A stretch of DNA of 64,000 nucleotides from a virus (IMGVR_UViG_3300044712_000688:32001-96000); one strand, 5' to 3'. Shown: positions 37,027 through 55,882, counted from the first letter of the stretch. The notes: generated by a model from the letters alone, not told the origin. Numbers and translations: made by a program.

Positions 37027-37936
37027 GTGGGTAGATACTCCGGGAATTAGAGAATCCATAGAATCATTTAGGGCCGAGAATGTCGAACCCACAAAGACTA
37101 TTCCACTAGGGTCCGAGCTTTATAAGTTCAATACGACAACTTCAAGATTTAAGACTGTCTGCAAAAATGCATCCAAGATTGACAAAGCCTTTGATCCAAG
37201 CCAGCTTTACGTTCTAAATTCTGACGGGCTCAGGTCTGATGAATTCACCAGCGAGCATGACGGTAAGCACGTTCTTTTTGCTGGATGCTCAGTTACCGCA
37301 GGTGAGGGACTTTTACTGGAACACACATGGGCATATAAGGTCTACCAAGAGCTAGCTCAGACAGAGAAACTGTCTGGCTATTTCAACATTGCTTTTCCAG
37401 GGGCATCTATTGCAGAGATAATCTCTCAAATATTTAGATACATAAATCTGTACGGCAACCCTTCAACTATTTTTGTCAACTTCCCCGACCCTGACCGAGA
37501 GTACTACTACGCATCAGCTATGGATTTCAGGGAGAGCGACTCCGTCCATGGCATAGACGATCCGATGAAACTAGTAGACACCAAGCAAATTGACTCACTT
37601 GTTTTTGCTTTGTATCTAGCGTTGAATGTCTACTGTAGGGCGCAGGGGATAACTCTGATAGCGACTACGTGGGCATCTTTAGAGTGGCGCACAGATCTAG
37701 AACACTACTCAGGGGATGTTCGAGAGAGCCTTCTAGGTCTCGACTTGACTAATCAGGAAAGTGCGATAGAAGCCCACTGTCAGAACTATGAGCTAGAATA
37801 TAAACACAGTAAATACAAAAAGTTTTTTCGCGATGCTCTTGACGAAGATCACCAAGGTCTAGCGATACATGATTACTATTCTAAATATTTTATGAATCGG
37901 TATCATGACAGTAGAGATGCAGAGATTGGATTCTAA
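37019..37936 (+). CDS. SGNH-like hypothetical protein
   Basis: NSDGLRSDEF, FAGCSVTAGEG, NIAFPGAS, DEDHQG. Confidence 0.6.
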   Translation: MRRWVDTPGIRESIESFRAENVEPTKTIPLGSELYKFNTTTSRFKTVCKNASKIDKAFDPSQLYVLNSDGLRSDEFTSEHDGKHVLFAGCSVTAGEGLLLEHTWAYKVYQELAQTEKLSGYFNIAFPGASIAEIISQIFRYINLYGNPSTIFVNFPDPDREYYYASAMDFRESDSVHGIDDPMKLVDTKQIDSLVFALYLALNVYCRAQGITLIATTWASLEWRTDLEHYSGDVRESLLGLDLTNQESAIEAHCQNYELEYKHSKYKKFFRDALDEDHQGLAIHDYYSKYFMNRYHDSRDAEIGF

Positions 37937-39339
37937 TGGGTAAAAGCATTATGGAGCAGATTGCGCTCCTGCCCCCAGAAGAACAGCGTGCAGCATTGGC
38001 AGGTCTGGACCCAGAGCAATTGATGTGGGACTGGTCCGTATGGGGGCGTCCAGAACAGCAAGCTCCTGAAGGCGACTGGAATATCTGGCTTGTACTAGCA
38101 GGTCGTGGTTTCGGTAAGACTCGCCTTGCGTCCGAATGGGTGCGCGAAGAAGCGAAATACACCAACACCGGCCAGCGTCGTTTCGGTCTGGTTGCCCGTA
38201 CCGCAGCCGACGTGCGTGACGTTATCGTTGAAGGTGAGTCAGGAATCCTGAACGTCACTCCTCCGAGCGAGCGTCCACTCTACGAGCCTTCGAAACGTCG
38301 TCTAACTTGGCCTAACGGAAATACCGCCACACTCTTCACCGCGGATGAGCCTGACTCGCTCCGTGGTCCTCAGTTCACTCACGCATGGGGCGATGAGATC
38401 GCGGCTTGGCGTCAAACCCCAGACGCTGCAGGCATGACTGCGTTTGACAACTTACGCGTTGGTACTCGTCTTGGTGCACACCCAAAGATTCTGGTTACCA
38501 CTACCCCGAAGCGCACACCGCTTCTTTACAAACTTATCGAAGAGTCCATGAAGGGCGACATCGTAAAGATCACTCGCGGTTCAACAATGGACAACGCAGG
38601 TAACCTGTCTGGCGCGTATCTTGACACAATGCTTGGCGTTTACGAGGGAACATCTCTTGCCCGTCAGGAACTCTACGGTGAAATGCTTGAGGCCATGGAA
38701 GGCGCTCTTTGGACCGAGGAAATGATTGAAGCTGGTAGAGAAAGCTACTACCCGCTCTCTACACCACTAAGAGTGATTGGAGTTGATCCATCTGTTGCGG
38801 AAAATCCGAGAGATGAGTGCGGCATTGTTGTTTGCGCTTCTACTTCTGAGCATGATCTTTATAAGCGCCAAGCCTGGGTATTGGAAGACGCGTCAGTCCA
38901 CGGTTCCCCGGACGTTTGGGCCAATCAGGTTGTTAAAATGGCTCGCAAATGGGGTTGTCCTGTTGTTGCGGAAGTTAATCAGGGCGGTGCACTTGTACGC
39001 AACGCGATTAACACCATCGACCCAACTATTAAAGTCCTCGAAGTCCACTCTAAGCAAGGAAAAGCTCTCCGAGCAGAGCCAATTACACTAGCCTACGAGC
39101 AACAGCGTGTCCACCACGTCGGATATCTTGCTGATTTGGAGTCACAGATGATCTCTTGGGTGCCTGGAGAGGGTAAATCGCCTGACCGTGTTGACGCTTT
39201 GGTGCATGCAATGACTGCACTGCTCATTAAACCGCCTGCAGGCTTCTCTGGAGGCAAAATTCGCGCTAAATCGCTATCTGATCGCCGAATTCCGAATACT
39301 AGACCAGGAAATAACGGAAAAATCTTCCGAGTACGCTAA
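37936..39339 (+). CDS. terL: Terminase large subunit
   Basis: LAGRGFGKTR, SLRGPQF..AWGDE, TTTP, IGVDP, SPDRVDA. Confidence 0.95.
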   Translation: MGKSIMEQIALLPPEEQRAALAGLDPEQLMWDWSVWGRPEQQAPEGDWNIWLVLAGRGFGKTRLASEWVREEAKYTNTGQRRFGLVARTAADVRDVIVEGESGILNVTPPSERPLYEPSKRRLTWPNGNTATLFTADEPDSLRGPQFTHAWGDEIAAWRQTPDAAGMTAFDNLRVGTRLGAHPKILVTTTPKRTPLLYKLIEESMKGDIVKITRGSTMDNAGNLSGAYLDTMLGVYEGTSLARQELYGEMLEAMEGALWTEEMIEAGRESYYPLSTPLRVIGVDPSVAENPRDECGIVVCASTSEHDLYKRQAWVLEDASVHGSPDVWANQVVKMARKWGCPVVAEVNQGGALVRNAINTIDPTIKVLEVHSKQGKALRAEPITLAYEQQRVHHVGYLADLESQMISWVPGEGKSPDRVDALVHAMTALLIKPPAGFSGGKIRAKSLSDRRIPNTRPGNNGKIFRVR

Positions 39340-39704
39340 TGAAAGTTTTACTAGACGTGTTTCCGGCTCACCTAGCGGTGGTTCCAGCTGGCACTTTTGA
39401 TGATGTTTACTCTTTAAAGTCGAATCCGGCTACCCCCGACGCGTTTTATAGGGCAACTACCCGCGTTGTTGTCACTGAAGAGGCTATTTTTGTTGCTCAG
39501 GACTCTCCAAATGGTGCTCAGATCATTTTTCAGGAGAAATATGACCTTTTACTGCCTGCTGCAGACAAAAAAAGTGATTACAGGGTTGTAACCAAGTCTG
39601 GAAAGATGCTAGCATTCCAAAAAGACACCAATTGCGGGTGCGGATCACGCCTTCGCAGTTGGAATGCGTATAAAACTATTACGGCACTGAAGGACGGACT
39701 ATGA
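39339..39704 (+). CDS. Hypothetical protein with C-terminal CGCGS
   Basis: Position after terL. Confidence 0.7.
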   Translation: MKVLLDVFPAHLAVVPAGTFDDVYSLKSNPATPDAFYRATTRVVVTEEAIFVAQDSPNGAQIIFQEKYDLLLPAADKKSDYRVVTKSGKMLAFQKDTNCGCGSRLRSWNAYKTITALKDGL

Positions 39705-39988
39705 GTATTGACTGGTTTTCGTACTTGCTATTAGTTTTAGCTGCTTATAGAGTTACTCGAGCAATAACTACGGACACAATCTTTGAATTTGCTCGAGAAA
39801 AAGTGTGGAAAAGGTTTCCACCAGATACAAAACTTGGATATTTGATCACTTGCAACTGGTGTACTGGTTTCTGGGTGTCAATTGTCTTTGTCGTGGCTTA
39901 TATTTTAGTGCCAGATATCGTTTTTGTGGTATCATTAGTCTTATCAACGTCTGCATTAGTGGGTATCATTTCTTCTAAGGCTGAATAA
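39701..39988 (+). CDS. DUF1360-like membrane protein
   Basis: LAAYRVTRAITTDTIF...LGYLITCNWCTGFWVS. Confidence 0.8.
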   Translation: MSIDWFSYLLLVLAAYRVTRAITTDTIFEFAREKVWKRFPPDTKLGYLITCNWCTGFWVSIVFVVAYILVPDIVFVVSLVLSTSALVGIISSKAE

Positions 39989-40000
39989 CAGGGAGTACCC

Positions 40001-41761
40001 TTGGGAATTTTTAAAAAGAACAACAAAAATGCTCGCGGTAGAGCATTGGCTGCTGGGTTGCGTGCATCTACTCCCCGAAGTGCAACCCCTATCGCTCCAG
40101 GCATCTCTGTAGACTCGTTCGGTCTGGTATATGCAGAGCCTGCATCCTACAATGCACCTCGCCCTCTTACTGCTGCCGCTGCTCAGATCCGAATCGGCGA
40201 CAAAACTGAAGCGGAAATGTTTAAGAATCGTCGTCAGTCAGCTGCGACTGCATGGCAAGCCGAAGCATGGGAGTACTACGATGCAATTGGTGAAATTAAA
40301 TATGCGTTTAATCTTGTGGCGTCTGTCGTATCACGTATCCGCCTTTACGCTGCTGCTGTAGATGACCCATCGGAAGCTCCAGTACCAGTTGATCTCTCAA
40401 AGATTGTTGATCCTCAGCTGGCATCTGCTGCTCAGCGTGCGCTATCTCGTCTTGACTCAGCTTATGGTGGTCAGGCAGGTCTTCTAAAGGACGCAGCCCT
40501 AAACTTGCAGGTCACTGGTGAGTGCTACCTAGTTCAGGTTCCAGAGCGTATTGGTTCACAGATTCCAGAGTCGTGGGATATCCGTTCCGTAGACGAACTA
40601 CAGCTTGACTCACGTGGAAACTACACCATCAACCCGATTCGTGACGCTAGCGGTTCTTCTTCAGGTCAAGCTGGTAAGAATGCAATCCGTCTACCGTCCG
40701 ATGCGTTTATCGGACGTATCTGGAAAGCACACCCACGCTACTCAATGGAGTCTGACAGCTCGCTACGCGGACTTTTAGATCTCTGTGCGGAATTGTTGCT
40801 ACTTAACCGTACTTTCCGCGCTACGGCCCGTTCTCGCCTCAATGCGGGTGCTTTGTACCTGCCTGACGGTTTGTCTGTTGCAGCTAGCCCTGACCCAGAC
40901 TACCCATACGACGAAGATGGCGAGTACAACGAGCTCTACAACACCGAAGAAGCTGCCGACGACTTTGAGGATCAGCTCATTGACGCGATGACCACTCCGA
41001 TCAAGGACGAGGACTCTGCTTCTGCTGTTGTTCCACTGATCATTCGTGGTCCGGCTGAACTTGGCGACAAGATCAAGCAGTTCAAGTTCGAGCGTTCATT
41101 CGACGCATCGCTAGTTGCTCGTGCTGATCGTGTACTAGAGCGCATCATGCAGGGTCTAGACGTCCCTAAAGACGTTGTGACGGGACTTGCGAACGTTAAG
41201 TACTCCAACGCACTACAAATCGATGAAGCCCTCTACAAGGCGCACATCGAGCCTCTGATGCTACTTATTGCTGACGCACTAACTGTTGTGTACCTGCGTC
41301 CATACCTAATCGCCAACGGCTACGACAAAGATGAAGTAGACCGTATTCAGGTTTGGTATGACCCGAGCCAAGTTGCTACTCGTAATGACCGCGCAGCCGA
41401 TGCTGACTCTGGTTTCGAAAAGATGGCAGTGTCTTTCAACACTTGGCGTCGTGCGCATGGCTTCTCTGAGGCAGATGCACCGAGTCCAGAAGAGTTGGCG
41501 CTACGTCTTGTTGTCGAGAAGGGTATGATCACTCCAGAGTTGACTCAGTCAATGCTAGAAGCGGTTGCACCAGAGCTTAAGGACCTGATCAATGCAGCCA
41601 GCCAAGCAAACTCTGTTGCTCCGATGACACCAGAGATTGAAAACATTCTCGAAGGTGGTCCAGGCACCCCTACCCCAGAGCCATCGGCTGAAACCGCTCC
41701 AGCCGAAGCACCACCTACATCAGCAGCCCCAACTACAGAACCTGAGGTACCAACACCATGA
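40001..41761 (+). CDS. Portal protein
   Basis: Follows terL; WQ.EAWEYYD.IGE, SR.RL, G.IWK.HP, LYKAHIEP. Confidence 0.9.
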   Translation: MGIFKKNNKNARGRALAAGLRASTPRSATPIAPGISVDSFGLVYAEPASYNAPRPLTAAAAQIRIGDKTEAEMFKNRRQSAATAWQAEAWEYYDAIGEIKYAFNLVASVVSRIRLYAAAVDDPSEAPVPVDLSKIVDPQLASAAQRALSRLDSAYGGQAGLLKDAALNLQVTGECYLVQVPERIGSQIPESWDIRSVDELQLDSRGNYTINPIRDASGSSSGQAGKNAIRLPSDAFIGRIWKAHPRYSMESDSSLRGLLDLCAELLLLNRTFRATARSRLNAGALYLPDGLSVAASPDPDYPYDEDGEYNELYNTEEAADDFEDQLIDAMTTPIKDEDSASAVVPLIIRGPAELGDKIKQFKFERSFDASLVARADRVLERIMQGLDVPKDVVTGLANVKYSNALQIDEALYKAHIEPLMLLIADALTVVYLRPYLIANGYDKDEVDRIQVWYDPSQVATRNDRAADADSGFEKMAVSFNTWRRAHGFSEADAPSPEELALRLVVEKGMITPELTQSMLEAVAPELKDLINAASQANSVAPMTPEIENILEGGPGTPTPEPSAETAPAEAPPTSAAPTTEPEVPTP

Positions 41762-42213
41762 CCTACGAAAAAAACGGTCTAGCAAAACATTTAGCACACT
41801 TGCTAGCCGATGTAGTTACTCTTGGATTCCTGACTCAGGGATATCACTGGAATGTAAAGGGACTCAACTTCTCTCAGTTCCATGAGTTTTTTGCAGAGAT
41901 TTATGGAGATGTTGATAGCGCGATTGATCCGCTTGCTGAGAACATCCGCAAACTCGGGTATGACTCTCCTTACTTGCTCACTGACTTTGCTGAGCTGACT
42001 TGTATTGTCCGCCAAGAGCGCGAACTCGGTGACGCGGTTTCAATGGTAGAGTCTCTGGCTCGTGTAAACCAGTCAGTGCTTATGTGCTACGAACAGGCCT
42101 TCACCATGGCCAGTGCTTGCAATGAGCAGGGAATTGCTGATTTTGTTGCTGGACGTATTGACATGCACCAGAAGTGGCAGTGGCAGTTGAAATCAACTCT
42201 AGGGGTTCAGTAA
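41758..42213 (+). CDS. dps: Dps/ferritin-like protein
   Basis: GYHWNVKG..F...HEFF.EIY....D.LAE.IRKLG...H.KW.WQL. Confidence 0.9.
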   Translation: MTYEKNGLAKHLAHLLADVVTLGFLTQGYHWNVKGLNFSQFHEFFAEIYGDVDSAIDPLAENIRKLGYDSPYLLTDFAELTCIVRQERELGDAVSMVESLARVNQSVLMCYEQAFTMASACNEQGIADFVAGRIDMHQKWQWQLKSTLGVQ

Positions 42214-42896
42214 TGTCATACGTTGACGACATCTTCAAAAAGAATAATGGCGAGTACGTATTAGTTCCCGAAGAGGAAGAGCTAGCTAATGCTCTTCAGT
42301 TGATTGCCAACAAGTACGGCAAGTTCAACGATGACAACACCGGAATCTGGGCAGGATACACTCCTGCATCAGAGAACGAAGAGAACGCAGCCATTGGCGT
42401 CAAGTGTGGTAACTGCGTTTTCTTTAATGCACCTAACGGCTGCTCAATCATTGCAGCTGAAGTTGAAGATGGCGGGCTATGCCGTTTCGCAGTTCTGCCA
42501 GATGGTGCAGTGACCGCGACTGCCGGGTCTAAGCCAGCTCCCAAGAAAGACCGAATCAAGGGCTCTGACAAGAACAAAAAGGGATCGGCTGCCGAAGGCA
42601 AGTCTGTGAACTTCACCGAAGAGATTATTACAGCTCTAAAGAACAAACTAGAAACTCACAACAAGAAGGCACCAGACGGTAGGAAAGCTACTATGGCGGC
42701 CCTCAAGGCTGTGTATCGTCGTGGTGCAGGCGCATTCTCTACCTCACACCGACCAGACCAAAACCGCAACTCGTGGGCCATGGCTCGTGTAAATGCATAT
42801 TTGCACTTACTACGCTCTGGTTCTCCTAAAAATTCAAAATATACAACTGACAACGACCTGCTTCCAAAAGCACATCCGAAGTCAACTAGAAAATAA
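42213..42896 (+). CDS. Two-domain head-module protein (Cys cluster CGNCVFF...C...C plus LKAVYRRGAGAFSTSHRP...WAMARVNA domain)
   Basis: ATG 42213 coupled to dps stop; both motifs recur in phage head modules. Confidence 0.75.
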   Translation: MSYVDDIFKKNNGEYVLVPEEEELANALQLIANKYGKFNDDNTGIWAGYTPASENEENAAIGVKCGNCVFFNAPNGCSIIAAEVEDGGLCRFAVLPDGAVTATAGSKPAPKKDRIKGSDKNKKGSAAEGKSVNFTEEIITALKNKLETHNKKAPDGRKATMAALKAVYRRGAGAFSTSHRPDQNRNSWAMARVNAYLHLLRSGSPKNSKYTTDNDLLPKAHPKSTRK

Positions 42897-42968: not shown

Positions 42969-45900
42969 GTGAGCTCAGCATTCACTACTCTCATCAGCAA
43001 GATTGAAAACTACTACGCTGATCACGACTACACTACCGAGGATGCCGAGTATCTTTCTCGACTAGCCATCGTTGAGTACGCTAAGGAAAAGAACGCGCTG
43101 GTTGCTTCAGCTCGTCAGGTTCCAGAGACTTCGATTGACAACATCATCGAGACAGCAATCCACTTCAACCTAGATGCTGACCCGAGCGAGTGGATGCTAT
43201 TTGCAGCTAACGCTGTTGACAACGTCCTCAACTACTCCCACCACGGAATCATCGCCTCTGGCCTTGGCGAATACACCGACTTCCTACCTCTAGGACACCC
43301 TTCACGTACTAACCGCGGTGCTATGACCGCATCTGCTCTATCTCAGTTGACTGCCCTCTGGGTGGCCGGAGATCCTCGCATTGCTTCGGAGCAGGCTCGT
43401 CTTGACGTTTACAGTGCATATGCGACCAAGCCTGGGTCAGTAGAAGCCGACTACGCTAGCGCAAAGCTAGGTGCTTTAGTTGCTGCTGGCTATGTCCCAG
43501 AAGACGTAGTACTTCCTGTTACTGCAGCTTTCAAGATGAGCTTCGCTATGCGTTCTGCAATGGCAAAGGCGCTGGCCGCTGTTCGTCGTCGTCACCGTGA
43601 CGGTCGATTCGCGGAAGAGTTCGGACGTCTACGTGGGTTCTTCAAGCGCGGAGACGGAAGCATCTTCTCCGAGGATGGCCGTATTGTTGGTGCGCCAGCT
43701 GGAACTAATAACTTCCAGATTGAGATTAAAGACAGTCCAGAAATTCCTGATGGCATCTACACCATTGACGCTGCAAAGACTGCGCCAGTAAAAGCTATTC
43801 TTTCTAAGCGTGCGCTTTCTAAGGTAAAGGGTCTTAAGGCTAACCGCTCCATCACAAACCCGAGCAAGGCAGATATTGCTTCTGCAATTCCTCTAGAAGA
43901 CTTCCTAAAGACCCGTGCAGATGCTCCAGAGGGCTGGACCAAAAACGAAGACGGTTCTTTCACCTCTAAGACTGGTCAGACCGTAAAGGCAATTACCACC
44001 CAGCCTAAGGGCGACTATATGGTTGAGGGCGCAGGCGAGAGCGGTGCCATTGACCCTAACACCCCGATGTTTGAGATTCGCGATAAGAATGGCGAGCTTC
44101 TAGGTGTTGGTCAGAACTGGGCAGGTCTTAACAAGATTGCTATGACCTATGACGCCCTAAGTGGCGAAGGTAGCAACACTCCAGACGAGCCAGGGCTAGA
44201 CCAGAAGGCTGGTGGCTCTAATCTTGACTCGCTAGTTAAGGAGCTAAAAGACGCTTCGTCTAAGTGGATGGATGAACAGCGCTTCAGCCCAGACGAGTAT
44301 GACGAGGCCACGGATGCAATGCCAGACCCTGCCGTTACTGCTGACTTTATTCTCCAAGCTGAGAAGTCGGGGGACACCTCGGAACTCAAAGGGCTACTTG
44401 ATGCTTATGAGGAAAGGCCATATGCTGAAGTCCTTAAGAAGGCAATTGAGCGTATTGATGGTGAAAAGGGTCTAGACCAGAAGCCGGGAGAAGGCAAGAA
44501 CTGGTATGACAACACCATTGACTTTGACCACCTATCTGATCCAGCTAACTGGAAGGGCTTTAAGGAAGGTACCCATGAGTACGTCTCTCCAGATGGAAAG
44601 CTAGAGCTAACTTGGGAGCCAGACGGTGAGCCAGACATGGGCGATGGCGCTACAGATCTGTCTGGAATTAGTGTTACCTATGATGGTCAGCCAATTGGCT
44701 CTTACTTGGCAAGTTACCGTGATTTAGAAGACGGCGACATCGCAGATGGCCTAAAGGATCTTTTCAAGAAGGAAAGCTGGTTCAGCCCAGACAACCTTGT
44801 TAAGTTCGGCCAGTATGGCAGTGCAGAATACAACAGCCCTGACGGTGGTGGCGTATACGTTGAACCTAAGGGCTCTAAGTATGAAGTTACTAAGTCGATT
44901 CCTCAGGGTATGATTGACGAAAACGTCGAACACTCCTATGAAAAAGTCGAGACCTACAACACCAAGGAAGAGGCCCACAAAGCGGCCGAAGACTTTGCAA
45001 GGTTGCTTGAGGACCCTTCGAAGAAGTATGACCTTCTATACGGGGACTGGAGTGACAGTGACGGTGGCTTTGATCAAGCTCCGGGCGAACCTACAAAACT
45101 AAGCGCAGCTGGTAAGAAGATTGCCAAGGACCTAGGTGACCACAAGTTCTTCCTCGAAGAGGATGCAGACGGAAACTTTACTGGAGGAGAATCAACTTAC
45201 ACTTCTCCAGATGGTCGTGTAGAAGTTAAGTACCGTGACGGCTCTTGGTTTGATGACGAGAAGGGCTACGTTGCTTGGGACGAGATGCAGGTCTCTGTAG
45301 ACGGCAAGCCAGTTGACAGCGTACTTCGCAACAAGCGAGAGTCTTGGCCTGACTTTCTTGACCGTGTTGCTGCTATGGCAGAGAACGGTCTAGAGAACCC
45401 TAACTATGCAGAAGAGAAGAAGGCTAAGCGCGAAGCCGACCGCAAGGCTCAGGAAGACTTCTATAACTCTCCAGAGCAGGTAGAAAAGCGTGCCCGCGCT
45501 AAGTGGGAAAAGGAGCAGGAAGAAGCTGCTCAGGCTCAGGCTCGTGATGCAGCTGACAAAGAAGGTCTACTTAAGAAGGTAGATGATCTAGCAAACAAGA
45601 TCTTCAATGGTGAAAGCGACGACAGCATCTGGGTTGGCGACGAGGACGAAGAAGGCTTCCGCAACTGGGGCGTCTATAACGAAGATGGCGAAGAGGTTGC
45701 GACCGGAAACGCTGGACCAAACTGGGACGCTACTGATATTGCTTCCGAAATTCGTGATGGCGTTAACTCGTACCTAGACAAGAAGATGGAAGAAGAGGCT
45801 GACTTCCAGTCGGGCTTTGACCAGAAGGCTGGCGAAGACAAGGCGGAGGCACCAGCTAAGCCACTATCTGAAAAGCAGATGGAACCAGCTACTGACAAGC

Positions 45901-48392
45901 AGTACGCACTTCTTGAGGAGCTTAACTCAGAGCGTGATGGTATTGACCCAGTCACTCAGAAGGCTATTGACGATGCACTAGCCAACAAGAACCTGACAAA
46001 GGCTCAGATGGCGTCTCTGTTTGGCGACCTTACTAAGAAGCCTTTCAAGCCAAACGTAGACCCTACCAAGCCAACCGAGCGCCAGATCAACTCGCTTCAG
46101 GGCTACCTAACCACCAAAGAACTAACTCCTGACGAGATGAACGACATTCTTGCTCAGCTTGATGCGGGACTAGATCGCGACTCAATCGAAAAGATTACTG
46201 CCAAGCTACGTCGTCGTCCAGACCGTCAGCCGACTGAAGGATTTGACCAAGCTGCCGGAATTGACAGCGAGTTCGATGACGAATACGACTCGGCTCACGC
46301 TGATGTAGAGTCTGCAATTGACCAAGCTCTGGAGGACTACCAGAACTCGCTGGAGGCTGACGGACTATCTGAGGCAGAGATTTCTGACAAGATGGACGAG
46401 GCAAACCAGATTGCCGAGCGTCTGCGTGATTCGTCCAATGTTGCTGACGCACAGGGAGCCGAGCGTGACATTGCTAACGACACCACTGGTGGAATCTTTG
46501 ACAAGATTGTTGAAGACATTCGCACTAACGCAGAGGCTCTAGACTCACGTAAACAGAAGAACCTTGCTGACGCTGATCAGGCGAAGGCAGACGAGGTTCA
46601 GGCTGCGATTGACGGAGACGACTCTAGCTTCCTCGAAGACATCGTAAATGACCCGAGCTACAGCGAGTATCAGTCTCAGATTGAGGATGCTCTCGCTGAC
46701 ATCAACGCACGTAAGGGCGAAGAAGAGCCTGGATTTGATCAGGCTTCTGGTAAGACCATTGCTGATGCATGGGAAGGTCTAGACCAAGATACCAAGGACA
46801 GCGTAGTCGAGTCAATGAGCGACTACCTACTTAAGTTACGTCAAACTAACCCAGACGAGTTCTACGACATGGTTTATGACGTAGCTGTAGATCACCCAGA
46901 TGGCAAGCGTGTGATGCAAAAGCCTCAGAACTATGCCGAGGACTTCATTGACTTCTATGCTAATGAAGACCCAGAGCTGATTGCAGACATGCTTGAAAAT
47001 GCTGGAGTTGATCTTGACGGCTTTGACCAAGCTCCAGGCAAGACTCTATCTCCAAAGATGATGGAGCCAGCTACTGACGCTCAGTACAACTACTTGCAGA
47101 GTCTTTTCGACAGCAAGACTGGAATTGATGACGAGACTGCTCAGGCTGTTAAGGAAGCTCTTGACTCAAAGAACTTGACTAAGGCTCAGGCTGGTGGATT
47201 CATCGGTAAGCTCCGTGACCTTGGTGACAAGGAGAACATGGGCCAGTACGGCAAGCCTTCTCAGAAGATGATTGACTCTGTAAAGCGTGACGTCTACGCT
47301 AAGGGCCTATCTGACGCAGACCGCGAAGAAATTCTTAAGGGTCTAGAGGACAAGTCAAAGGGCGATGTCTCATTTATTATCAGCATGCTGAAAGAAATGG
47401 ATGACGTCGAGGGTGGTATTCCAAAGTACATTGACAGCCTAGTTCAGAGTGGCGACGTAGATGCATTGAAGCGTCTACGTGCTGACGATCGCTATGGTCG
47501 TTGGTCAAGCCAGATGGATGACGCTCTAGCAAAGATGGACTCTGGTAATCAGGGTTTTGACCAAGCTCCCGGGGAGCGCTCTAGCAGCGACCGAGGTCAG
47601 ATGAAGTCAGATCTATCTTCTCTAGCTGAAGAGGTAGAGAACAGCAATGAAATCGGCTACGCATTTCTAAACAAGAACTTCGTTGACGGTCTTGATCTGA
47701 ATGACCCTGACGACGCTTACTACCTACACGCTGAGTTGATGGATGCATACAAAGCAATGCGTCCTAACTCAGAAGAAGGTAAGGCATTGGAAGCTCGTCT
47801 TAAGAAGGCTGCTGATGACCTGCTCAACAGCATCGAGTCAGACCTAGGCCCTATTGAAGCAGCTAAGCGCGACCCAGAAGACATGGGAAGCAGTTTTGAA
47901 TTTGATAGTGCTGTAGATGACCTACCTGACTTCTTTGACTACTACTTCCCGACTGATGCATCATCGGATATGAGAAATGATCCAGATGGTGGTTCAGTTG
48001 GTGATGTTCGAGGTGGTGGCTGGGAAGCTTCTGTACGCTTCAACGAGGAAACTCAGAAGTGGGAAGCCGACATGACTTCGCCAGGATTTGCTTCCGAGAA
48101 CTACAGCGAGTCTTTCGATGACCAAGATGAAGCAGCCGACTGGGTAGCAAATGAGCTTGATCGCCAGAACACTTCAACACGTAATCGTGACACTAATATT
48201 CTTGCTGAAGATGGTCTTGCCGGACTCATCGAGGAGTATGGAGATGATCCAGCAGAACTAGCTGGCGTTCTAGAAGGTGTCATTGGATGGCTTCGAGGTA
48301 CTAACCGTGGACAAGCACAGAAGATTGCAAGTACTCTAGATGACTATGTTACTCGCCTACGCGAGCAGCTGGCCAAAAACCCAAAAGCCTAG
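42969..48392 (+). CDS. Giant acidic multi-module head-associated (polyvalent-like) protein
   Basis: About 1,807 aa from GTG 42969 (AGGAAGG upstream); eight G(F/L)DQ motifs; duplicated EPATDxQ...LTKAQ modules. Confidence 0.85.
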   Translation: MSSAFTTLISKIENYYADHDYTTEDAEYLSRLAIVEYAKEKNALVASARQVPETSIDNIIETAIHFNLDADPSEWMLFAANAVDNVLNYSHHGIIASGLGEYTDFLPLGHPSRTNRGAMTASALSQLTALWVAGDPRIASEQARLDVYSAYATKPGSVEADYASAKLGALVAAGYVPEDVVLPVTAAFKMSFAMRSAMAKALAAVRRRHRDGRFAEEFGRLRGFFKRGDGSIFSEDGRIVGAPAGTNNFQIEIKDSPEIPDGIYTIDAAKTAPVKAILSKRALSKVKGLKANRSITNPSKADIASAIPLEDFLKTRADAPEGWTKNEDGSFTSKTGQTVKAITTQPKGDYMVEGAGESGAIDPNTPMFEIRDKNGELLGVGQNWAGLNKIAMTYDALSGEGSNTPDEPGLDQKAGGSNLDSLVKELKDASSKWMDEQRFSPDEYDEATDAMPDPAVTADFILQAEKSGDTSELKGLLDAYEERPYAEVLKKAIERIDGEKGLDQKPGEGKNWYDNTIDFDHLSDPANWKGFKEGTHEYVSPDGKLELTWEPDGEPDMGDGATDLSGISVTYDGQPIGSYLASYRDLEDGDIADGLKDLFKKESWFSPDNLVKFGQYGSAEYNSPDGGGVYVEPKGSKYEVTKSIPQGMIDENVEHSYEKVETYNTKEEAHKAAEDFARLLEDPSKKYDLLYGDWSDSDGGFDQAPGEPTKLSAAGKKIAKDLGDHKFFLEEDADGNFTGGESTYTSPDGRVEVKYRDGSWFDDEKGYVAWDEMQVSVDGKPVDSVLRNKRESWPDFLDRVAAMAENGLENPNYAEEKKAKREADRKAQEDFYNSPEQVEKRARAKWEKEQEEAAQAQARDAADKEGLLKKVDDLANKIFNGESDDSIWVGDEDEEGFRNWGVYNEDGEEVATGNAGPNWDATDIASEIRDGVNSYLDKKMEEEADFQSGFDQKAGEDKAEAPAKPLSEKQMEPATDKQYALLEELNSERDGIDPVTQKAIDDALANKNLTKAQMASLFGDLTKKPFKPNVDPTKPTERQINSLQGYLTTKELTPDEMNDILAQLDAGLDRDSIEKITAKLRRRPDRQPTEGFDQAAGIDSEFDDEYDSAHADVESAIDQALEDYQNSLEADGLSEAEISDKMDEANQIAERLRDSSNVADAQGAERDIANDTTGGIFDKIVEDIRTNAEALDSRKQKNLADADQAKADEVQAAIDGDDSSFLEDIVNDPSYSEYQSQIEDALADINARKGEEEPGFDQASGKTIADAWEGLDQDTKDSVVESMSDYLLKLRQTNPDEFYDMVYDVAVDHPDGKRVMQKPQNYAEDFIDFYANEDPELIADMLENAGVDLDGFDQAPGKTLSPKMMEPATDAQYNYLQSLFDSKTGIDDETAQAVKEALDSKNLTKAQAGGFIGKLRDLGDKENMGQYGKPSQKMIDSVKRDVYAKGLSDADREEILKGLEDKSKGDVSFIISMLKEMDDVEGGIPKYIDSLVQSGDVDALKRLRADDRYGRWSSQMDDALAKMDSGNQGFDQAPGERSSSDRGQMKSDLSSLAEEVENSNEIGYAFLNKNFVDGLDLNDPDDAYYLHAELMDAYKAMRPNSEEGKALEARLKKAADDLLNSIESDLGPIEAAKRDPEDMGSSFEFDSAVDDLPDFFDYYFPTDASSDMRNDPDGGSVGDVRGGGWEASVRFNEETQKWEADMTSPGFASENYSESFDDQDEAADWVANELDRQNTSTRNRDTNILAEDGLAGLIEEYGDDPAELAGVLEGVIGWLRGTNRGQAQKIASTLDDYVTRLREQLAKNPKA

Positions 48393-48409
48393 CCCCCAAT
48401 GAGGGGGCT
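48380..48409 (+). other. Predicted programmed -1 ribosomal frameshift signal
   Basis: C_CCA_AAA heptamer 48380-86, 4-nt spacer, hairpin agccccc-aatga-gggggct 48391-48409; -1 frame open from 48344 to 50692. Confidence 0.8.
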
Positions 48410-50692
48410 GAGCCTGGATTAGATCAGGACGCTCCAGATTTAGACCGAATCAAGAGCATCCTAGATAAGTACCGTACTAAGCCAACTGCCACAGAGACTG
48501 TACGTCCATCTGTAGCCGAAGGCGAGCCGGGATCTAGAACTAATCCACTCGAACTTACTCAGGAGCAACTTGATGAAAAGCTTGCCTCTGTAACCGAGAC
48601 TAACAAGGCTGCGGCTTCCAGTGTTTTGTCTAGCGTACTAGACAAACTGCGCAATCCTAGAAGCATCAAAGATTGGGTACAAAAGTGGAAGAGAGACGGT
48701 AACCGACCTCTCCCAGTCAACCCTGCAAGTGAGACCCACTACACCGGCCCCAACCTATTGGTCTTGGAAAACGCAGCTTCAGAAAACGGATTCAGCGACC
48801 CTAGATGGATGAGTGCGTCTCAGGTTGCTCAGGCTGGAGGAACAATCCCAGCTGGAACCAAGGGTACTCAGATTCTTGTACCTAGCTTCTTTGTAACCAC
48901 CCGTGACGGCAAGGTTGTCGAGCACTTTGAGTTTAGAAAAGTCACTGTTTTTAATGGTGATCAGATTCAAGGAATCGCTCCATACAACGCTGACGAAAAC
49001 AAGTCCTACACCGCAAAAGAGGCTGTAGATATCATCCTTGACAGAATGCGTGAAGCAGCCGAGCTTCGAGGTGTCAAGGCTCCTGAAATGTTTGGTATTC
49101 AGCTAGATGAAAACCAGAATCCACGCTGGATGCCTAACTATCGCGGAGAAGTTGATAGGATCCGACTACCACTCCGAGCAAACTTTGATAGCGATGAGTC
49201 TTGGTTTAATGCCATTACCCACGAACTAATTCACAGCACGGGTAGAACCAACCGACTTAACCGAGAAGAAGTTAAGAAGGCACTAGATGGAAACAGCAAT
49301 GCCTACGCAGAAGAAGAGCTAACTGCCGAGCTAGGCTCCATGCTTCTATCAAAGATGTTTGGTCTTGACGCTGACCAAGATAACTCAATCAGCTACTTGC
49401 TCACTCACATTAGAAACCTAGATGGCATTGACGCGGATAAGGCCGTGACTGATGCCATGACTAGGGCACAGCTAGCTGCCGACTACCTGCTTGGTAACGA
49501 TGTTCTTCCTCAGTGGAACCCGCTGAAGACTAAGGTTGCCCCGACCCCACAGTCGGTAAGAATGGCGTCTACTACTCCAGAAGACTCGAGCCTGAACCCA
49601 GACACTAATCCTGATTCAGTTGATGCTCCTCTAGTAGGACTTGACCAAGCCCCGGGCAAGAAGCCTTTCAACCGCGCTAAGTCCGTGTCTGACAGCAAGG
49701 ATGCTAAAGAGCGAGTTCTATCTGGACTACTGGAAAAGATTAAAGAAGGTAAGGCTCCTTGGCGTAAGCCATTTAAGGATGACGCTAACTATGCTGGTGC
49801 ATTCGTTCCGCGTAACCCAGCATCGAAGCACATTTACAGCGGTATTAACTCGATTGTTCTTAAGCTGTACCAGCAGTTGTCTGGGTATGACGATCCTCGC
49901 TGGATGACCTACAACCAAGCCACAGAATTAGGTGGTCAGGTTCGTAAGGGCGAGAAAGGTGTACAAATCCTTGTTCCTTATAAGAGGGTCAAGAAAGAGA
50001 AGGATTCCTCAACTGGAGAAGAGAAGGTAACTGGTAGTTACGTAACATTTGGTGTAAAGACCGTGTTCAATGTTGAGCAGATTGATGGTCTAAACCTGCC
50101 TACCGTCAAGGCCGAGGCTGGAGAGCCTAAGACCCCGCTCGAGGCACAAGACTTCATTCTTGAGCGCTACCAAAAGTCAATGGAGGCCAAGGGTCTAAAG
50201 GCTCCTGAAATTTCATATACATATGTAGGTCAGTACGGTAGCCACTCATCTTCTCCAAACTGGGACCCAAGTTTCGACATGATTACCCTCCCAACCAAGG
50301 AGCAGTTCAATAGCCCAGAGGATATGTTTGACACCATTGCCCATGAGCTTGCTCACTCGACCGGACACAGGGATCGCCTTGACCGCACCGAGCTAACCAA
50401 GAACTATGGAACAAGCAATGCAGCCCGAGGTGAGGAAGAGCTTATTGCAGAAATCTCTGCAGCAATCCTAGCCAGCATGTTCGGTGTTAACAGCGACTTT
50501 GACAATACCGCGGCCTATGTAAAGAGTTGGCTAAAAGCACTACAGGATAACCCTGATATGGTTATGAAAGCCTCTTCTGAAGCTCAGAAGGTAGTAGACT
50601 ATTTGCTAGGTATGGATCTGGGAGACTGGAGCCCTATCGAGGGTTACCGAGCATCAAACAAATCTAAATCAGATGGAGACTCAGATGAGTAA
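48386..50692 (+). CDS. Tandem ArdC-like modules (ssDNA-binding N-domain plus zincin metallopeptidase) x2, probably expressed as -1 frameshift extension
   Basis: P.NP.S...Y.G.N...L, DPRWM...Q....GG....G.KG..I, VFN..QI.G; THELIHSTG and AHELAHSTG; EEL.AE; ORF-track TTG 48626 has no RBS. Confidence 0.85.
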   Translation, partial: SLAPNEGAEPGLDQDAPDLDRIKSILDKYRTKPTATETVRPSVAEGEPGSRTNPLELTQEQLDEKLASVTETNKAAASSVLSSVLDKLRNPRSIKDWVQKWKRDGNRPLPVNPASETHYTGPNLLVLENAASENGFSDPRWMSASQVAQAGGTIPAGTKGTQILVPSFFVTTRDGKVVEHFEFRKVTVFNGDQIQGIAPYNADENKSYTAKEAVDIILDRMREAAELRGVKAPEMFGIQLDENQNPRWMPNYRGEVDRIRLPLRANFDSDESWFNAITHELIHSTGRTNRLNREEVKKALDGNSNAYAEEELTAELGSMLLSKMFGLDADQDNSISYLLTHIRNLDGIDADKAVTDAMTRAQLAADYLLGNDVLPQWNPLKTKVAPTPQSVRMASTTPEDSSLNPDTNPDSVDAPLVGLDQAPGKKPFNRAKSVSDSKDAKERVLSGLLEKIKEGKAPWRKPFKDDANYAGAFVPRNPASKHIYSGINSIVLKLYQQLSGYDDPRWMTYNQATELGGQVRKGEKGVQILVPYKRVKKEKDSSTGEEKVTGSYVTFGVKTVFNVEQIDGLNLPTVKAEAGEPKTPLEAQDFILERYQKSMEAKGLKAPEISYTYVGQYGSHSSSPNWDPSFDMITLPTKEQFNSPEDMFDTIAHELAHSTGHRDRLDRTELTKNYGTSNAARGEEELIAEISAAILASMFGVNSDFDNTAAYVKSWLKALQDNPDMVMKASSEAQKVVDYLLGMDLGDWSPIEGYRASNKSKSDGDSDE

Positions 50693-50913: not shown

Positions 50914-53028
50914 ATGAACCACCTAATCGGCCGCTCTGGCGAACTAGCATTCTATGCTAACAATACACACGGTGTAGTGATCAACACTGCCGTAGGAGCT
51001 GTCGTCGCTAGCGGTGTAGCCCTCGACATTTTCGCAGAAAACAAATGGGAAACCTCGGGTACCCCCCTTACTCCGGCTGAAAAACTGCTTGCCGATAAGG
51101 TTCTAGCCAACCTAGAAGAAGAAGCCATCGTTGCTTCTGCAGACAGAATGTACACCATTCCTAAGTCTGTAGAGGCAGAGGCAAAGAAAGCTTTAGAGTG
51201 GCGTAAGGAAGAAGGCCGAGGAGGGACTCCTGTTGGCCTAAACACTGCTCGCACGCTTGCTAAGGGCGGTCAGATCGGTATCCGCAAGATTCGCCACATT
51301 GCTAAGTACTTCCCTCGTCACGAAGTTGATAAGAAGGGTAAAGGCTGGAAGCCTGGCCAAGATAACTTCCCATCTAACGGTCGTATCGCATGGGCACTTT
51401 GGGGTGGAGACGCCGCTTGGCGTTGGGCACGTGCAATCGTTGAGCGCGAAGATAAGAAAGAGAAGTCAGTCACTGCTGGTGGTGGCTACACTGTCTCTAA
51501 CTATGTAGATCAGGTCAACTACCCTAAGCAGAACGAAGAGCTAAACCCGTTCAAGTACGCTCATGAGCTTGATGAAAACTACGGCCCAGAATTCTTGGCT
51601 CGAGTTTGCCTAGATGGTTCTGGTATTGACCGACTTTACATGATAGACATAGACGGCTCGGTCTACGTCTGGGACGACGCTTGCTGGGACAACCTAGGTC
51701 ACGTTGATGGTGACATCTGGACATACGACCGTATGTTGGATGATGTCTATGATCTAGAGGAAAAGTCTCACGTAATTATTGACCCTCAGTCTGCTCTTAT
51801 GATTGCAGCTCGTATGGCTGTAGACCCATACTGCAAGACTTCTGTCTTTGATCTAGATGCTGATGAAGCTTCTTTAATGGAGGCTGGTATTGGTGGCGAA
51901 GACTGGGAGTTTATTGACCAAGTAATTACTGCCGCAGCCCCTACCAACCAAGACGGCAACTACACTCCAGAAGAGCGTTCAGCAAACGCTGGTAACCAGC
52001 CTCGAGACGCTATGGGCCAGTTTGCTAAGGTAGGCCAGAAGGTAGCTATCGGTGGAGACGCTGCTAGAGGTTCTGGCACAATCCGCGACATTGATGGTGC
52101 TACTGGTATTGTTACCGTTGACCTTGCTGATGGACGAACTGTAAAGGTTGGTTCTAAGTACCTAGTCCCTGCAGAAAAGGCAAGTAGTCGTCCAAACTCT
52201 TTGCGTGTTGATGATGCAAATAAAGCTCCTATGGACTTCTCTGGGATCATTGGCGAGCCTCGTACTCCTCAGAACAGCAAGAAGGCCCACCTTCCGGGAA
52301 CTCTACCAAAGCTAGATGTCAATGAATTTATCAACAACTACGCTTCTTGGGTGGAGAAGGAACGCTACAAGCCAAGGAGCGCAGCTGACAAGGCTGCGGT
52401 CAAGAAGCGTTGGCCAAATGCCAAGTTCACAGATGCATCTATCATTGCCTCTGCCGAAGAGAAGATTCTCACTCCTTCAACTTCTGACGTAACCCCTAGG
52501 TACCTAGCTATCGTTGCTCAGGAAGACCCTGAAGCAATGGTTGATCTAGTAGCAATTATTCCTAAGACCGCTACTTCCACTTCTCCAATTGCCTACAAGC
52601 GTGAGGGAGATAAGTGGGTTCAGGATGACCAGACCCTAGCAGACCTTCGTTCAGCAACTAAGCCTCCAGTAGTAGAGCTAGATAAAGAATCCCTAAAGGA
52701 TGTTCTATCTCAGATGTCTGAGAACAAGCCTACAGAAGAGACTGCTCCAGAAGCGGTTATGGCTAGCTTGCTTACTGTCCTCGATGCTTTTGTGGCAGCA
52801 GGTGGAGCTGATAAGAACCGTGGCAACGCAGAAAAACTTCGTCGCTACTGGGTATATGGAGAAGGTGCTGCCAAGATCCGCTGGGGCCAGCCTGGAGACT
52901 GGAAGCGTTGTGTACGCTACCTAGCTAAGCACCTAGGCCCACGTGCAAAGGGATACTGCCAACTTCGTCACAAGGATGCCCTTGGCTACTACACCGCAAC
53001 CCATGCGAAAAGAGACCGTAATGGCTAA
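50914..53028 (+). CDS. Multi-domain head-associated protein
   Basis: EAKKALEWR...GRIAWALWGGD domain; QPRD..GQF; C-terminal RGNAEKLRRYW...AAKIRWG.PGD..RC domain. Confidence 0.8.
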   Translation: MNHLIGRSGELAFYANNTHGVVINTAVGAVVASGVALDIFAENKWETSGTPLTPAEKLLADKVLANLEEEAIVASADRMYTIPKSVEAEAKKALEWRKEEGRGGTPVGLNTARTLAKGGQIGIRKIRHIAKYFPRHEVDKKGKGWKPGQDNFPSNGRIAWALWGGDAAWRWARAIVEREDKKEKSVTAGGGYTVSNYVDQVNYPKQNEELNPFKYAHELDENYGPEFLARVCLDGSGIDRLYMIDIDGSVYVWDDACWDNLGHVDGDIWTYDRMLDDVYDLEEKSHVIIDPQSALMIAARMAVDPYCKTSVFDLDADEASLMEAGIGGEDWEFIDQVITAAAPTNQDGNYTPEERSANAGNQPRDAMGQFAKVGQKVAIGGDAARGSGTIRDIDGATGIVTVDLADGRTVKVGSKYLVPAEKASSRPNSLRVDDANKAPMDFSGIIGEPRTPQNSKKAHLPGTLPKLDVNEFINNYASWVEKERYKPRSAADKAAVKKRWPNAKFTDASIIASAEEKILTPSTSDVTPRYLAIVAQEDPEAMVDLVAIIPKTATSTSPIAYKREGDKWVQDDQTLADLRSATKPPVVELDKESLKDVLSQMSENKPTEETAPEAVMASLLTVLDAFVAAGGADKNRGNAEKLRRYWVYGEGAAKIRWGQPGDWKRCVRYLAKHLGPRAKGYCQLRHKDALGYYTATHAKRDRNG

Positions 53029-55861
53029 CGAACAAGAATTCCTTATGGAAGAGATTTTGACCAAGAATTACGGTGTTCCTACGGAGATCACCGATGAAGA
53101 TCTATTGATGCCTATCGAAGACATCATGTTTGAAGATGATGACATCTACGATGACTCTTGGGAGCCAGACGAGGAAACTTGCCGTCAGCTAGCCGAGCTA
53201 GCGGATTGCGATGACGAAGAATATGCGTCCCTTATTGCTGCTGGTGGCCTAGACCGTAACCGTGGTAACGCAGAGGAGCTTCGCCAGTACTGGACTCGCG
53301 GTAAGGGCGCTGCCAAGATTCGCTGGGGTACCCCTGGCGATTGGACTCGTTGCGTTCGTCAGCTTTCAAAGTACATGGGCCCACGCGCTAAGGGCTATTG
53401 CCAGCTACGCCACAAGGACGCGACTGGTATCTACACTGGTAGCCGATTCAACCCGGGCCGTCGTAATGAAACCTCTAGCCTATATGCAAGCGAAGCTGAG
53501 TTTACCCAGTCGGTTATCGCTCAGGCAGAACTTACTGCTAGAGCGAACCACGCTAGAGAGCGTTTCGGTCTAGTTGCAAGTGCTGGTATGCAACACGGTG
53601 CAAAGTTCAACATTCCTCTACTGATCCCAGAAGACTTGGAGTCAGGAGATGGCCGTAAGTTTGTGAAGGACTCTCTATCAGTTCGAGAGCTTCCACTTCC
53701 ACTTCTATGGCAGATCAAGACCGGCGACGGTCACATGGGGTCTGTGGTGGTTGGACGTATTGATTACGTAGAAAGAACCGAAAACGGTATTGGAAATGCC
53801 TATGGTGTTTTTGATACAGGAGCATATGGTCAAGAAGCAGAGCGTCTAGTACGTAACGGATTTATCCGTGGTGTTTCTGCAGATCTTGACCAGTTCGAAG
53901 CAGAAGAAGATAAGACTGAAAATGCTGAGGACACCGAAGACGTAGGTAAGAAGAAGTTAACCATAAATCACGCCCGTGTAATGGCTGCTACAATTGTAGC
54001 TAAGCCTGCATTCCAAGAATGCACTATCTCTATTGAAGAAAAACCAGCGGGAGACCAGGAGGATGAAGTGATTCCAGTTGACGGAATATATGAAGAATCC
54101 GTCGAACAAGAATTCTCTGGCACATCGCTAGTTGCTTCAGGATTCATTGACGGCGAGATTCCTATGACACCACCAGCAGAGTGGTTCAAGGATCCTAAGC
54201 TAACTAAGCCAACCCCAATCACCGTTGACCCTTCTGGTCGTATCTACGGTCACATTGCAGCTTGGCACGTAAACCACATTGGCATGCCTCGCTCTACCCG
54301 CCCACCTCGCTCAAAGAGCAAGTACGCATACTTCCACACTGGTGTAGTCCGCTGTGCTGACGGAACTGACATGCCAGTGGGACAGTTAACTCTTGCTGGT
54401 GGACACGCACCTCTAACTGCTAACGCTGCTTCTGCAGCTAAGCACTACGACGACACCGCTTCTGCGATTGCAGATGTTCACATGGGTGAAGACGAGTATG
54501 GAATCTGGTGTGCTGGCTCGGTACGTCCAGACGCAACCGAGATGCAGATTCGCGCACTTCGCGCTTCTGCTCCTTCTGGCGACTGGCGTCCAATTAATGG
54601 CTCGCTCGAGCTTGTTGCAGTTTGTCAGGTAAACGTTCCAGGCTTCCCGATTGCTCGCGCAATGGTTGCTTCAGGTAAGGTTATGGCTCTAGTTGCAGCT
54701 GGTGCAAGCATGATGGCAATCATGAAGAGTCAGCACGTAGCAACCCTATCTGAGCGTGCATACAACCTAGCTGAACTTTCAGCTAGCGCCCCAGACCTAC
54801 GTTCTCGTGTAAAGTCTGCAAAGAAGGCTGTAAAGAAGCAGGCTCTAGTTGCTGCTGCTGCTAAGGCAGAAGAACTAAAGACCCGTGCTCTAGTTGCTGC
54901 TGCCGTTGCCGAGCTAGCTAAGTTCTCTGACGAAGAGAGAATGAAGCTTGCTGACAAGGGTCAGGCTCTACCAGATGGTTCGTTCCCAGTGCGCAACGAA
55001 CAGGATCTCCGTAATGCTATCCAAGCATATGGACGTGCAAAGCGAGAGAACCGAGTAGCTGTCCGCAAGCACATTATCAAGCGAGCTAAGGCTCTAGGTA
55101 AGGCATACCTGATTCCAGATGAGTGGAAGTCAGCTGGTTCTACCGAGGCCGCGACAATCGTTGCTTCGATGCGTTCTCGTATCGCAGAATTTGCAGAAGC
55201 CCCGATCAAGGAGATTTCTGACGCAGACCTAAAGAAGCTGAAGGATGTAAAGGCCGAAGCTGACAAGCAGACTGCAGAAGAGATCAAGCTCGCTGAGGAT
55301 ATTCGTACTGGTAAGACTACTGCCAAGGAAGTCTATGACAAAGAAGGTCGTAGCAAGTACACCCCAAAAACCCAACCCCGTGACGCTAAAGGTAAGTACC
55401 GCAAGGTTCTTGCTCGACTAAAGCAGAACCTAGGTGTGGCGGGGCTTCAGAAGGCTTTGGAAAAGGTAGAAAAGGCAGAAAACCTAGAGTTTGCTGGCGA
55501 CTACGTAAACTCAGCCAAGGCTAGTAGCGAGCTACTAGGAATGATTGATCGTCTAGATACTAAGGCCCTAAACCCTAAGTCTCTAGAAAACGTCCGCTCA
55601 ACAGCGGCCGAACTAGGCAAGACAATTGCCAACCTTCCATTGCCATTCGGCAAGGAAGCTCAGAAAGTTAGATTTAGCGATCTACCTGCCGGACTAAAGA
55701 CACTCATCGATGGGATGATTTCTCGAGTCGAAGCAAAGATCGGTAAAGAGGACGCAGATATTGCAACCGCAAATCTGAAGTCCTTCATGTCTGGTGCAGA
55801 TGTCTATTCTCAGGCTGAAATTCAGTCAGAGATGAACACCCTGCTCCGACTCCTTACCTAA
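53021..55861 (+). CDS. Capsid maturation protease-containing multidomain protein
   Basis: SGDGRKF...PLPLLWQ...GH..SVVVGRI, GVSADLD, G.IYGHIAAW, SGDWR; ALPDGSFP.RN..DL.NAI domain; start 53021 coupled to upstream stop. Confidence 0.8.
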   Translation: MANEQEFLMEEILTKNYGVPTEITDEDLLMPIEDIMFEDDDIYDDSWEPDEETCRQLAELADCDDEEYASLIAAGGLDRNRGNAEELRQYWTRGKGAAKIRWGTPGDWTRCVRQLSKYMGPRAKGYCQLRHKDATGIYTGSRFNPGRRNETSSLYASEAEFTQSVIAQAELTARANHARERFGLVASAGMQHGAKFNIPLLIPEDLESGDGRKFVKDSLSVRELPLPLLWQIKTGDGHMGSVVVGRIDYVERTENGIGNAYGVFDTGAYGQEAERLVRNGFIRGVSADLDQFEAEEDKTENAEDTEDVGKKKLTINHARVMAATIVAKPAFQECTISIEEKPAGDQEDEVIPVDGIYEESVEQEFSGTSLVASGFIDGEIPMTPPAEWFKDPKLTKPTPITVDPSGRIYGHIAAWHVNHIGMPRSTRPPRSKSKYAYFHTGVVRCADGTDMPVGQLTLAGGHAPLTANAASAAKHYDDTASAIADVHMGEDEYGIWCAGSVRPDATEMQIRALRASAPSGDWRPINGSLELVAVCQVNVPGFPIARAMVASGKVMALVAAGASMMAIMKSQHVATLSERAYNLAELSASAPDLRSRVKSAKKAVKKQALVAAAAKAEELKTRALVAAAVAELAKFSDEERMKLADKGQALPDGSFPVRNEQDLRNAIQAYGRAKRENRVAVRKHIIKRAKALGKAYLIPDEWKSAGSTEAATIVASMRSRIAEFAEAPIKEISDADLKKLKDVKAEADKQTAEEIKLAEDIRTGKTTAKEVYDKEGRSKYTPKTQPRDAKGKYRKVLARLKQNLGVAGLQKALEKVEKAENLEFAGDYVNSAKASSELLGMIDRLDTKALNPKSLENVRSTAAELGKTIANLPLPFGKEAQKVRFSDLPAGLKTLIDGMISRVEAKIGKEDADIATANLKSFMSGADVYSQAEIQSEMNTLLRLLT

Positions 55862-55882
55862 AAAATAAGGTACAATTAGTGA

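Follow-up and report, generated by a model that had tools for sequence, protein, structure and literature searches.

None of the three elements described here, polyvalent proteins, ArdC and −1 frameshifting, is new in itself. Polyvalent proteins, which are widespread in phages and plasmids and include DdrB/DarB of phage P1, are giant multi-module proteins encoded in phage late or structural operons, and their commonest hub is the domain pair ArdC-N and MPTase-PolyVal (MPTase in what follows). P1 DdrB is processed before packaging, and autoproteolytic release of modules by the MPTase has been predicted for polyvalent proteins in general terms (Iyer, Burroughs, Anand, de Souza, Aravind 2017; PMC5512222); that paper defines neither a delimiter nor a cleavage motif (the word “linker” is absent from it), and it has no frameshift. 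Whether and how such proteins are dismantled has so far only been guessed at. The polyprotein described here is encoded in a window of 64,000 nucleotides, bases 32001-96000 of a 136,298-bp virus record (IMGVR_UViG_3300044712_000688). It possesses the same hub pair, unites in a single polypeptide a number of modules unrelated to one another, conflict-related domains among them, and has a late/structural setting in which terminase, portal, head protease and major head protein genes flank it. Unlike the described polyvalent proteins, it carries a short delimiter peptide, G-[FL]-D-Q, at every module border, family-wide, and a conserved −1 frameshift before its protease-bearing part. Positions are those of the window, and all features of the polyprotein lie on the + strand.

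The first open reading frame (ORF1; 42969-48392) encodes 1,807 amino acid (aa) residues and is identical to P0003 (1,807 aa). Its most plausible start is the GTG at 42969, with the Shine-Dalgarno sequence AGGAAGG ahead of it, and its last codons are AAC, CCA, AAA, GCC and TAG (stop at 48390-48392), giving the C-terminus N-P-K-A. Just 5′ of the stop, in the ORF1 frame, lies the slippery heptamer C_CCA_AAA (48380-48386; pattern X_XXY_YYZ), followed four nucleotides later by a hairpin with a 7-bp G+C stem and a 5-nt loop (48391-48409) but no U-tract. This hairpin scores −21.6 kcal/mol with a z of −3.1, against a z of only −1.3 for its counterpart in L074. No stop interrupts the −1 frame between 48344 and 50692, and it has no ATG, GTG or TTG ahead of the TTG at 48626; the extension entered at the slip site (48386-50692; 768 aa) consists of two ArdC-like units. 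Judged by its heptamer, downstream structure, conservation and startless −1 ORF, 48380-48386 is a predicted programmed −1 frameshift site. The best explanation of this arrangement is two forms, ORF1 alone (1,807 aa) and a transframe product of about 2,574 aa made by the predicted −1 frameshift. A sequence-only reading of the window had spoken of a polyprotein; this consists of two ORFs, the ninth and tenth motifs being joined to the rest only through the frameshift at 48380-48386.

The heptamer is kept in the relatives L003, L004, L005, L007, L009 and L075; in five relatives the heptamer, the stop and the hairpin stem are retained even where the sequence ahead of them has drifted apart, with variation confined to the loop within the hairpin. 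All 23 of the closer protein clusters terminate in P-K-A. In a distant clade with D-L-D-Q delimiters the C_CCA_AAA cassette is replaced by A_AAA_AAA and a C5/G5 hairpin, while a third clade, represented by L075, again uses C_CCA_AAA. The locus in question (L075:10001-25338) contains an ORF1 of 3,341 aa with 16 delimiter sites and a −1 ORF2 of 1,779 aa with seven sites, two H-E-x-x-H motifs and two MPTases; with the same heptamer and hairpin, the predicted transframe product has about 5,100 aa and 23 G-F-x-Q sites. A product of that size would be among the largest phage proteins. In all three clades with a readable frameshift site a delimiter follows some 10 to 15 codons after the slip site, and in these three the MPTase units lie downstream. 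A sister clade has in-frame fused forms without the cassette (P0039, P0042 and P0043), in which the MPTase units are likewise in frame.

A six-frame search located G-[FL]-D-Q at each of the ten codon starts, from 44193 to 49637, listed in the sequence-only reading, eight in the ORF1 frame and two in the −1 frame. The fused protein (about 2,575 aa) holds 11 matches, where 0.076 are expected from composition; the other ORFs of the 136,298-bp genome (37,857 aa) hold one, and there are none in the scaffold/protease ORFs, the capsid protein, the portal or any other head ORF. ORF1 residues 399-1545 (1,147 aa) were modeled using AlphaFold2 from a 23-row alignment, with a mean predicted local distance difference test score (pLDDT) of 68.8. 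In the model, stretches of low-confidence coil separate confidently predicted domains, which are helical or mixed, and although segments with pLDDT<50 cover just 20.6% of it, all eight modeled delimiters fall within them. Delimiter 1 (G-L-D-Q-K-A-G; 44193-44213) is at model residue 11, directly after a low-confidence tail of the N-terminal module; delimiters 2 (44469-44489), 3 (45066-45086) and 4 (45813-45833) are at residues 103, 302 and 551, in segments 100-110, 300-311 and 547-571; delimiters 5 (46239-46259), 6 (46731-46751), 7 (47019-47039) and 8 (47553-47573) are at residues 693, 857, 953 and 1131, in segments 689-703, 832-864, 953-964 and 1128-1147. In the −1 frame, delimiter 9 (48416-48436) stands 10 codons past the slip site, and delimiter 10 (49637-49657) occupies a P/S/T-rich stretch between the two ArdC units, after the end of ArdC homology in the first and before its start in the second. 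A position inside folded domains, which the sequence-only reading had named as refuting its proposal, is not what the model shows: the motif sits in inter-domain coil. The eleventh in-frame match, a G-L-D-Q at 46776-46796 (model residue 872), is not counted as a delimiter because it is inside a confident helix (pLDDT ~80) and is missing from relative L003.

The codons of the motif differ synonymously among its copies in the window, and the longest exact DNA word that they have in common is 14 nt; the conserved object is therefore a peptide and not a DNA site or repeat. This bears on the proposal, also made in the sequence-only reading, that the motif marks recombination junctions. Modules are indeed inserted, deleted and swapped exactly at the motif, and to that extent the proposal survives. 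It is nevertheless hardly credible that the motif is a DNA-level junction or scar of cassette exchange with no peptide role: the constraint is on the amino acids, and linkers are in any case where exchange would be expected, being the only junctions that leave the domains intact. Module exchange at the motif is accordingly a consequence of its position.

Dividing the fused protein at the delimiters gives the order D/I/C/F/A/H/G/A/E/B/B, with module lengths of 92-424 aa. All modules are acidic (pI 4.05-5.74), as had been proposed for the small ones. The nine modules besides the ArdC units (B) fall into eight blastp families (D, I, C, F, A twice, H, G and E). The N-terminal module D (42969-44192; 408 aa) is conserved across the whole family and comprises a helical domain and a beta domain. 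The two copies of module A (45813-46238, 142 aa, helical; 47019-47552, 178 aa) are 38% identical, and a profile search with this module retrieved 35 proteins among 1.84 billion representatives, nearly all of them giant polyproteins of 1,300-4,885 aa. The A pair was the sole relationship that the sequence-only reading had allowed among otherwise mostly unrelated segments, and here it needs amending: modules C and F (44469-45065 and 45066-45812) also share a beta-rich domain, marked by Y-x-S-P-D-G. This S-P-D-G domain recurs often in related polyproteins, with seven S-P-D-G copies in P0050.

Most of the modules match no described polyvalent-protein domain, and for these the DNA-mimic or defence-inhibitor roles raised in the sequence-only reading are putative. 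Pfam and PHROGs searches of every inter-motif segment outside the ArdC units gave nothing below E 0.001, and the ESM Atlas gave no usable match to module D or module A. Foldseek searches of PDB and BFVD with the 1,147-aa model returned low TM-scores only, although a model of several domains makes this a weak test. With module D alone, VIA-align Z values were at most 7.5 (generic helical bundles) and Foldseek E values were above 0.1, yielding no assignable fold. No Pfam or PHROG match to a chymotrypsin-like (3C-like) protease was found, the fold searches being uninformative on this point since they used the multi-domain model.

The C-terminal units B1 (48416-49636) and B2 (49637-50689) are ArdC-like, each with one delimiter ahead of it, in agreement with the sequence-only reading, and each combining ArdC-N, an ssDNA-binding domain, with a following MPTase zincin of the gluzincin type. 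Pfam reports two ArdC-N and two MPTase-PolyVal domains above cut-offs (PF08401 and PF18818; E 6e-48 and 1e-47). Both units align end to end with ArdC of plasmid R388 (PDB 6I89/6SNA; PMC7213743): residues 22-323 of B2 with residues 8-284 of the 297-aa protein, and B1 with residues 28-287 of 6I89. H-E-x-x-H is intact in B1 (49220-49234) and in B2 (50342-50356), and the downstream glutamate helix, which supplies the third-ligand Glu, is aligned with 6I89 in both. B2 amounts to an entire stand-alone ArdC, and at least one motif-bounded unit therefore equals a separate gene. R388 ArdC is a plasmid protein that stands alone, whereas here a tandem pair forms the C-terminus of a head-operon polyprotein.

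Across 23 clusters of related metagenomic polyproteins 22 module families were recognized. The N-terminal D and the C-terminal A-E pair are fixed, the interior is variable, and every gain, loss or swap of a module in six loci and these 23 clusters is bounded by the motif; comparison of relatives had been suggested earlier, and their module sets do differ exactly there. L003 has the order D/C/F/A/H/G/A/E/B-B, its final junction changed to G-F-N-Q; L007 has D/J/C/C/x+A/G/A/E/B/B, with an internal Y-F-E-Q variant; and L009 runs D/C/F/A/C′/A/E/B/B from module D onward. In a logo pooled from 194 sites the successive positions are Pro or acidic, G, L/F (in near-equal shares), D, Q, D/A/K, A and P/G. 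Distant clades that share the N-terminal module each have a uniform variant of their own: G-L-G-Q (3-5 copies), [PV]-D-L-[DN]-Q-D (4-8 copies), S-F-[DN]-Q, or G-F-x-Q (13-17 copies vs about one expected). In G-F-x-Q the second-last position is free, and the residues that follow the motif are particular to each clade. Only F/L and Q are invariant across the clades. Such clade-uniform, concerted variants are what co-evolution with one reader predicts, and on this comparison whatever reads the delimiter peptide co-evolves with it. More distant giant proteins (P0037, P0038, P0061-64 and the one from Actinomycetia phage DSL-LC01) yielded nothing like the delimiter in a de novo gapped-motif search, and scans of viral contigs with P0027 and P0045 gave no match.

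The concerted variants also bear on whether the protein is cut at all. It might remain whole, as beads on a string, with the motif serving as a conserved linker or docking peptide for the capsid, the portal or a host partner, or assisting ordered unfolding and passage through the tail. The position of the sites in inter-domain linkers suits this, as do the delivery of some MPTase-bearing polyvalent proteins in whole form and the dispensability of ArdC protease activity in conjugation. We consider it somewhat unlikely: a plain flexible linker needs neither two invariant residues nor clade-wide concerted variants, no candidate binding partner is evident, and the motif bounds units, such as ArdC, found elsewhere as separate genes. 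If the peptide is cut, a host protease might do so after ejection, the host thus releasing the modules. That the sites are exposed linkers is the sole point in favor of this quite improbable course, since the variants differ among close phage clades (head proteins 73-80% identical), a divergence that a conserved host enzyme would hardly drive, and the phage encodes proteases of its own.

A second candidate reader is the prohead (capsid maturation) protease encoded at 52943-55861, which would cut the sites during head maturation much as T4 gp21 trims internal proteins. The polyprotein gene is in the head operon beside the protease gene, and G-F-x-Q, with hydrophobic P3, free P2 and fixed P1, resembles the L/I-x-E sites of T4. 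Moreover, a second motif, [LIVM]-[VI]-A-[SA], links module D with other head proteins and suggests that the polyprotein enters the procapsid. It occurs 22 times in the head-gene block (43098-43487 and 50914-59185, plus the portal and DUF5824 genes): three times within the N-terminal 180 residues of module D (43098, 43248 and 43476), four times in the 704-aa ORF, eight times in the protease/scaffold ORF, three times in the capsid protein, twice in the ORF after the capsid gene, and a single time in both the portal and the DUF5824 ORF. The head block extends from the portal gene to 58100; the 45 window ORFs that are not part of it have none, against a summed per-ORF expectation of about 3-4. The motif is kept at homologous places in the D-L-D-Q clade. 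Assemblin-type proteases cut at (V/L/I)-x-A|S, which it resembles, and it is probably the site motif of the prohead protease.

That very motif makes it unlikely that the prohead protease reads the delimiter. A shared consensus would be anticipated, yet G-[FL]-D-Q is present in none of the other head ORFs and the delimiter is missing from the L075 protease ORF, while a different motif is enriched in the head ORFs. The second motif and the protease core remain constant across the clades (the core is 73-80% identical, vs 34-56% for the ArdC units), whereas the delimiter changes. There thus appear, from these patterns, to be two independent site systems, a stable one common to the head proteins and a variable one confined to the zincin-bearing polyprotein. 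Their different conservation favors the MPTase as reader of the delimiter, circumstantially.

The reading that we favor, tentatively, is that the delimiters are processing sites of a Gag-Pol-like polyvalent protein, most likely cut by its own ArdC-type zincins. The G-[FL]-x-Q peptides would be exposed signals in the linkers between independently folding modules and would serve as proteolytic processing sites. The enzyme would be the MPTase of the polyprotein itself, kept sub-stoichiometric by the frameshift as is the protease in retroviral Gag-Pol. The scissile bond may lie after Q or between G and F/L; zincins usually show a hydrophobic S1′ preference, which would suit the latter. Cutting would set free some nine acidic modules together with two ArdC proteins, and their release, by analogy with the T4 internal proteins and the P1 Dar proteins, would take place in the capsid or, after ejection, in the host. 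In its full form the proposal is conceivable, though we hold it with slightly more reserve than the reading just given: G-[FL]-x-Q would be the natural site of an ArdC-type MPTase, and a frameshift-dosed long form would dice a head-packaged polyprotein (up to about 5,100 aa and some 23 sites) into ejected, acidic, mostly unknown anti-defence proteins.

Several observations weigh against this self-processing. A gappy alignment at module borders can by itself lower the pLDDT at the sites. The hydrophobic-any-Q pattern shares with T4-type prohead protease sites the likeness noted above. The [LIVM]-[VI]-A-[SA] motif is found inside the folded capsid domain as well, so that as a prohead site it is itself a candidate. 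Cleavage of the polyprotein is a prediction. N4 vRNAP, pSa ArdC and RP4 TraC1 are all delivered whole, and for R388 ArdC no protease substrate was detected and the E229A mutant is still functional (PMC7213743).

The gene order of portal, polyprotein, then protease, scaffold and capsid places the polyprotein gene inside the head-morphogenesis module. The large terminase is encoded at 37936-39339 and the portal at 40001-41761, and the interval between them holds a gene for a small DUF1360 membrane-type protein (39701-39988). A ferritin/Dps-like gene (41758-42213; PF00210, E 5e-16) and a DUF5824 gene (42174-42896), whose product has a conserved Cys cluster, stand between portal and polyprotein, and both are kept in relatives. 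Downstream are the 704-aa ORF (50914-53028), the 972-aa head-maturation-protease/scaffold ORF (52943-55861), the major head protein gene (55886-58009) and, beyond it, connector and tail genes. The 704-aa and 972-aa ORFs overlap; in relatives G001-G003 they are one ORF of about 1,500 aa. In the window a Cys-containing domain of about 70 aa (phrog_6439) is duplicated, one copy closing the first ORF and the other opening the second, and the frame changes between them. Immediately 5′ of the packaging genes is a Nol-like carbamoyltransferase gene (35587-37026; phrog_1601, E 5e-101), the product of which may have a role in DNA or glycan modification.

The major head protein begins with an acidic extension of about 270-350 aa (55886-56800) containing tandem E-E-A-P-V repeats, and its likeness to distant phage capsids starts only around residue 272-291. 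It shares 68.6% identity with its counterpart in Actinomycetia phage DSL-LC01 and about 50% with capsid proteins of Microbacterium, Arthrobacter, Gordonia and Mycobacterium phages, and on these identities the virus is regarded as actinophage-like. The locus had no megablast match among 50,697 phage records; by tblastn the sole match was the N-terminal module, in DSL-LC01, whose 3,289-aa counterpart lacks a G-[FL]-D-Q-type motif. Three further candidates were set aside: an I-D-Q in the N-terminal extension of the capsid protein, which is not kept in the genome of L007; a D-L-D-Q in the protease ORF, inside a weak Peptidase_S78 match, which is kept in both clades and was read as coincidence (it adjoins a G-V-S motif that presumably may hold the catalytic Ser); and a likeness of the C-terminus G-x-x-Q, left after a cut, to that of Pup, which was dropped for want of support.

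In an incomplete literature search no earlier account of a polyvalent protein with a delimiter motif or with a frameshift came up. The clade-variable delimiter offers a concrete candidate peptide for the ArdC metalloprotease domain, the substrate of which was not found in the R388 study (PMC7213743), and gives clean borders for some 20 families of unknown small acidic modules. As frameshift-dosed polyprotein logic in a DNA phage the locus would be a rare example.

The G/GT-type −1 frameshifts of phage tail chaperones likewise employ a canonical heptamer in a structural operon and give two products with a common N-terminus; they concern other genes and another scale, the extension here reaching 768 to about 1,770 aa and carrying enzymes. 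Head-packaged, ejected cargo trimmed at a short consensus is known from the T4 internal proteins and Alt (cut by gp21 at L/I-x-E sites; IPI* is anti-restriction) and from the inner-body proteins of phiKZ (gp175). Such cargo is encoded by separate small genes and cut once by the prohead protease, whereas the delimiter here is absent from the other head proteins, which bear another motif. Parallels in logic are retroviral Gag/Gag-Pol and coronavirus pp1a/pp1ab, in which an X_XXY_YYZ heptamer and a structure set the ratio of short to long form and the long form bears the protease. That protease cuts at short conserved sites between the domains of Gag-Pol and pp1ab; here the corresponding cleavage is only predicted, there is no homology, the virus is a DNA phage, and the enzyme would be a zincin rather than an aspartic or 3C-like protease. 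If the interpretation is true, the ArdC-MPTase programme would be the first defined self-processing polyprotein system of a tailed DNA phage, organized like Gag-Pol.

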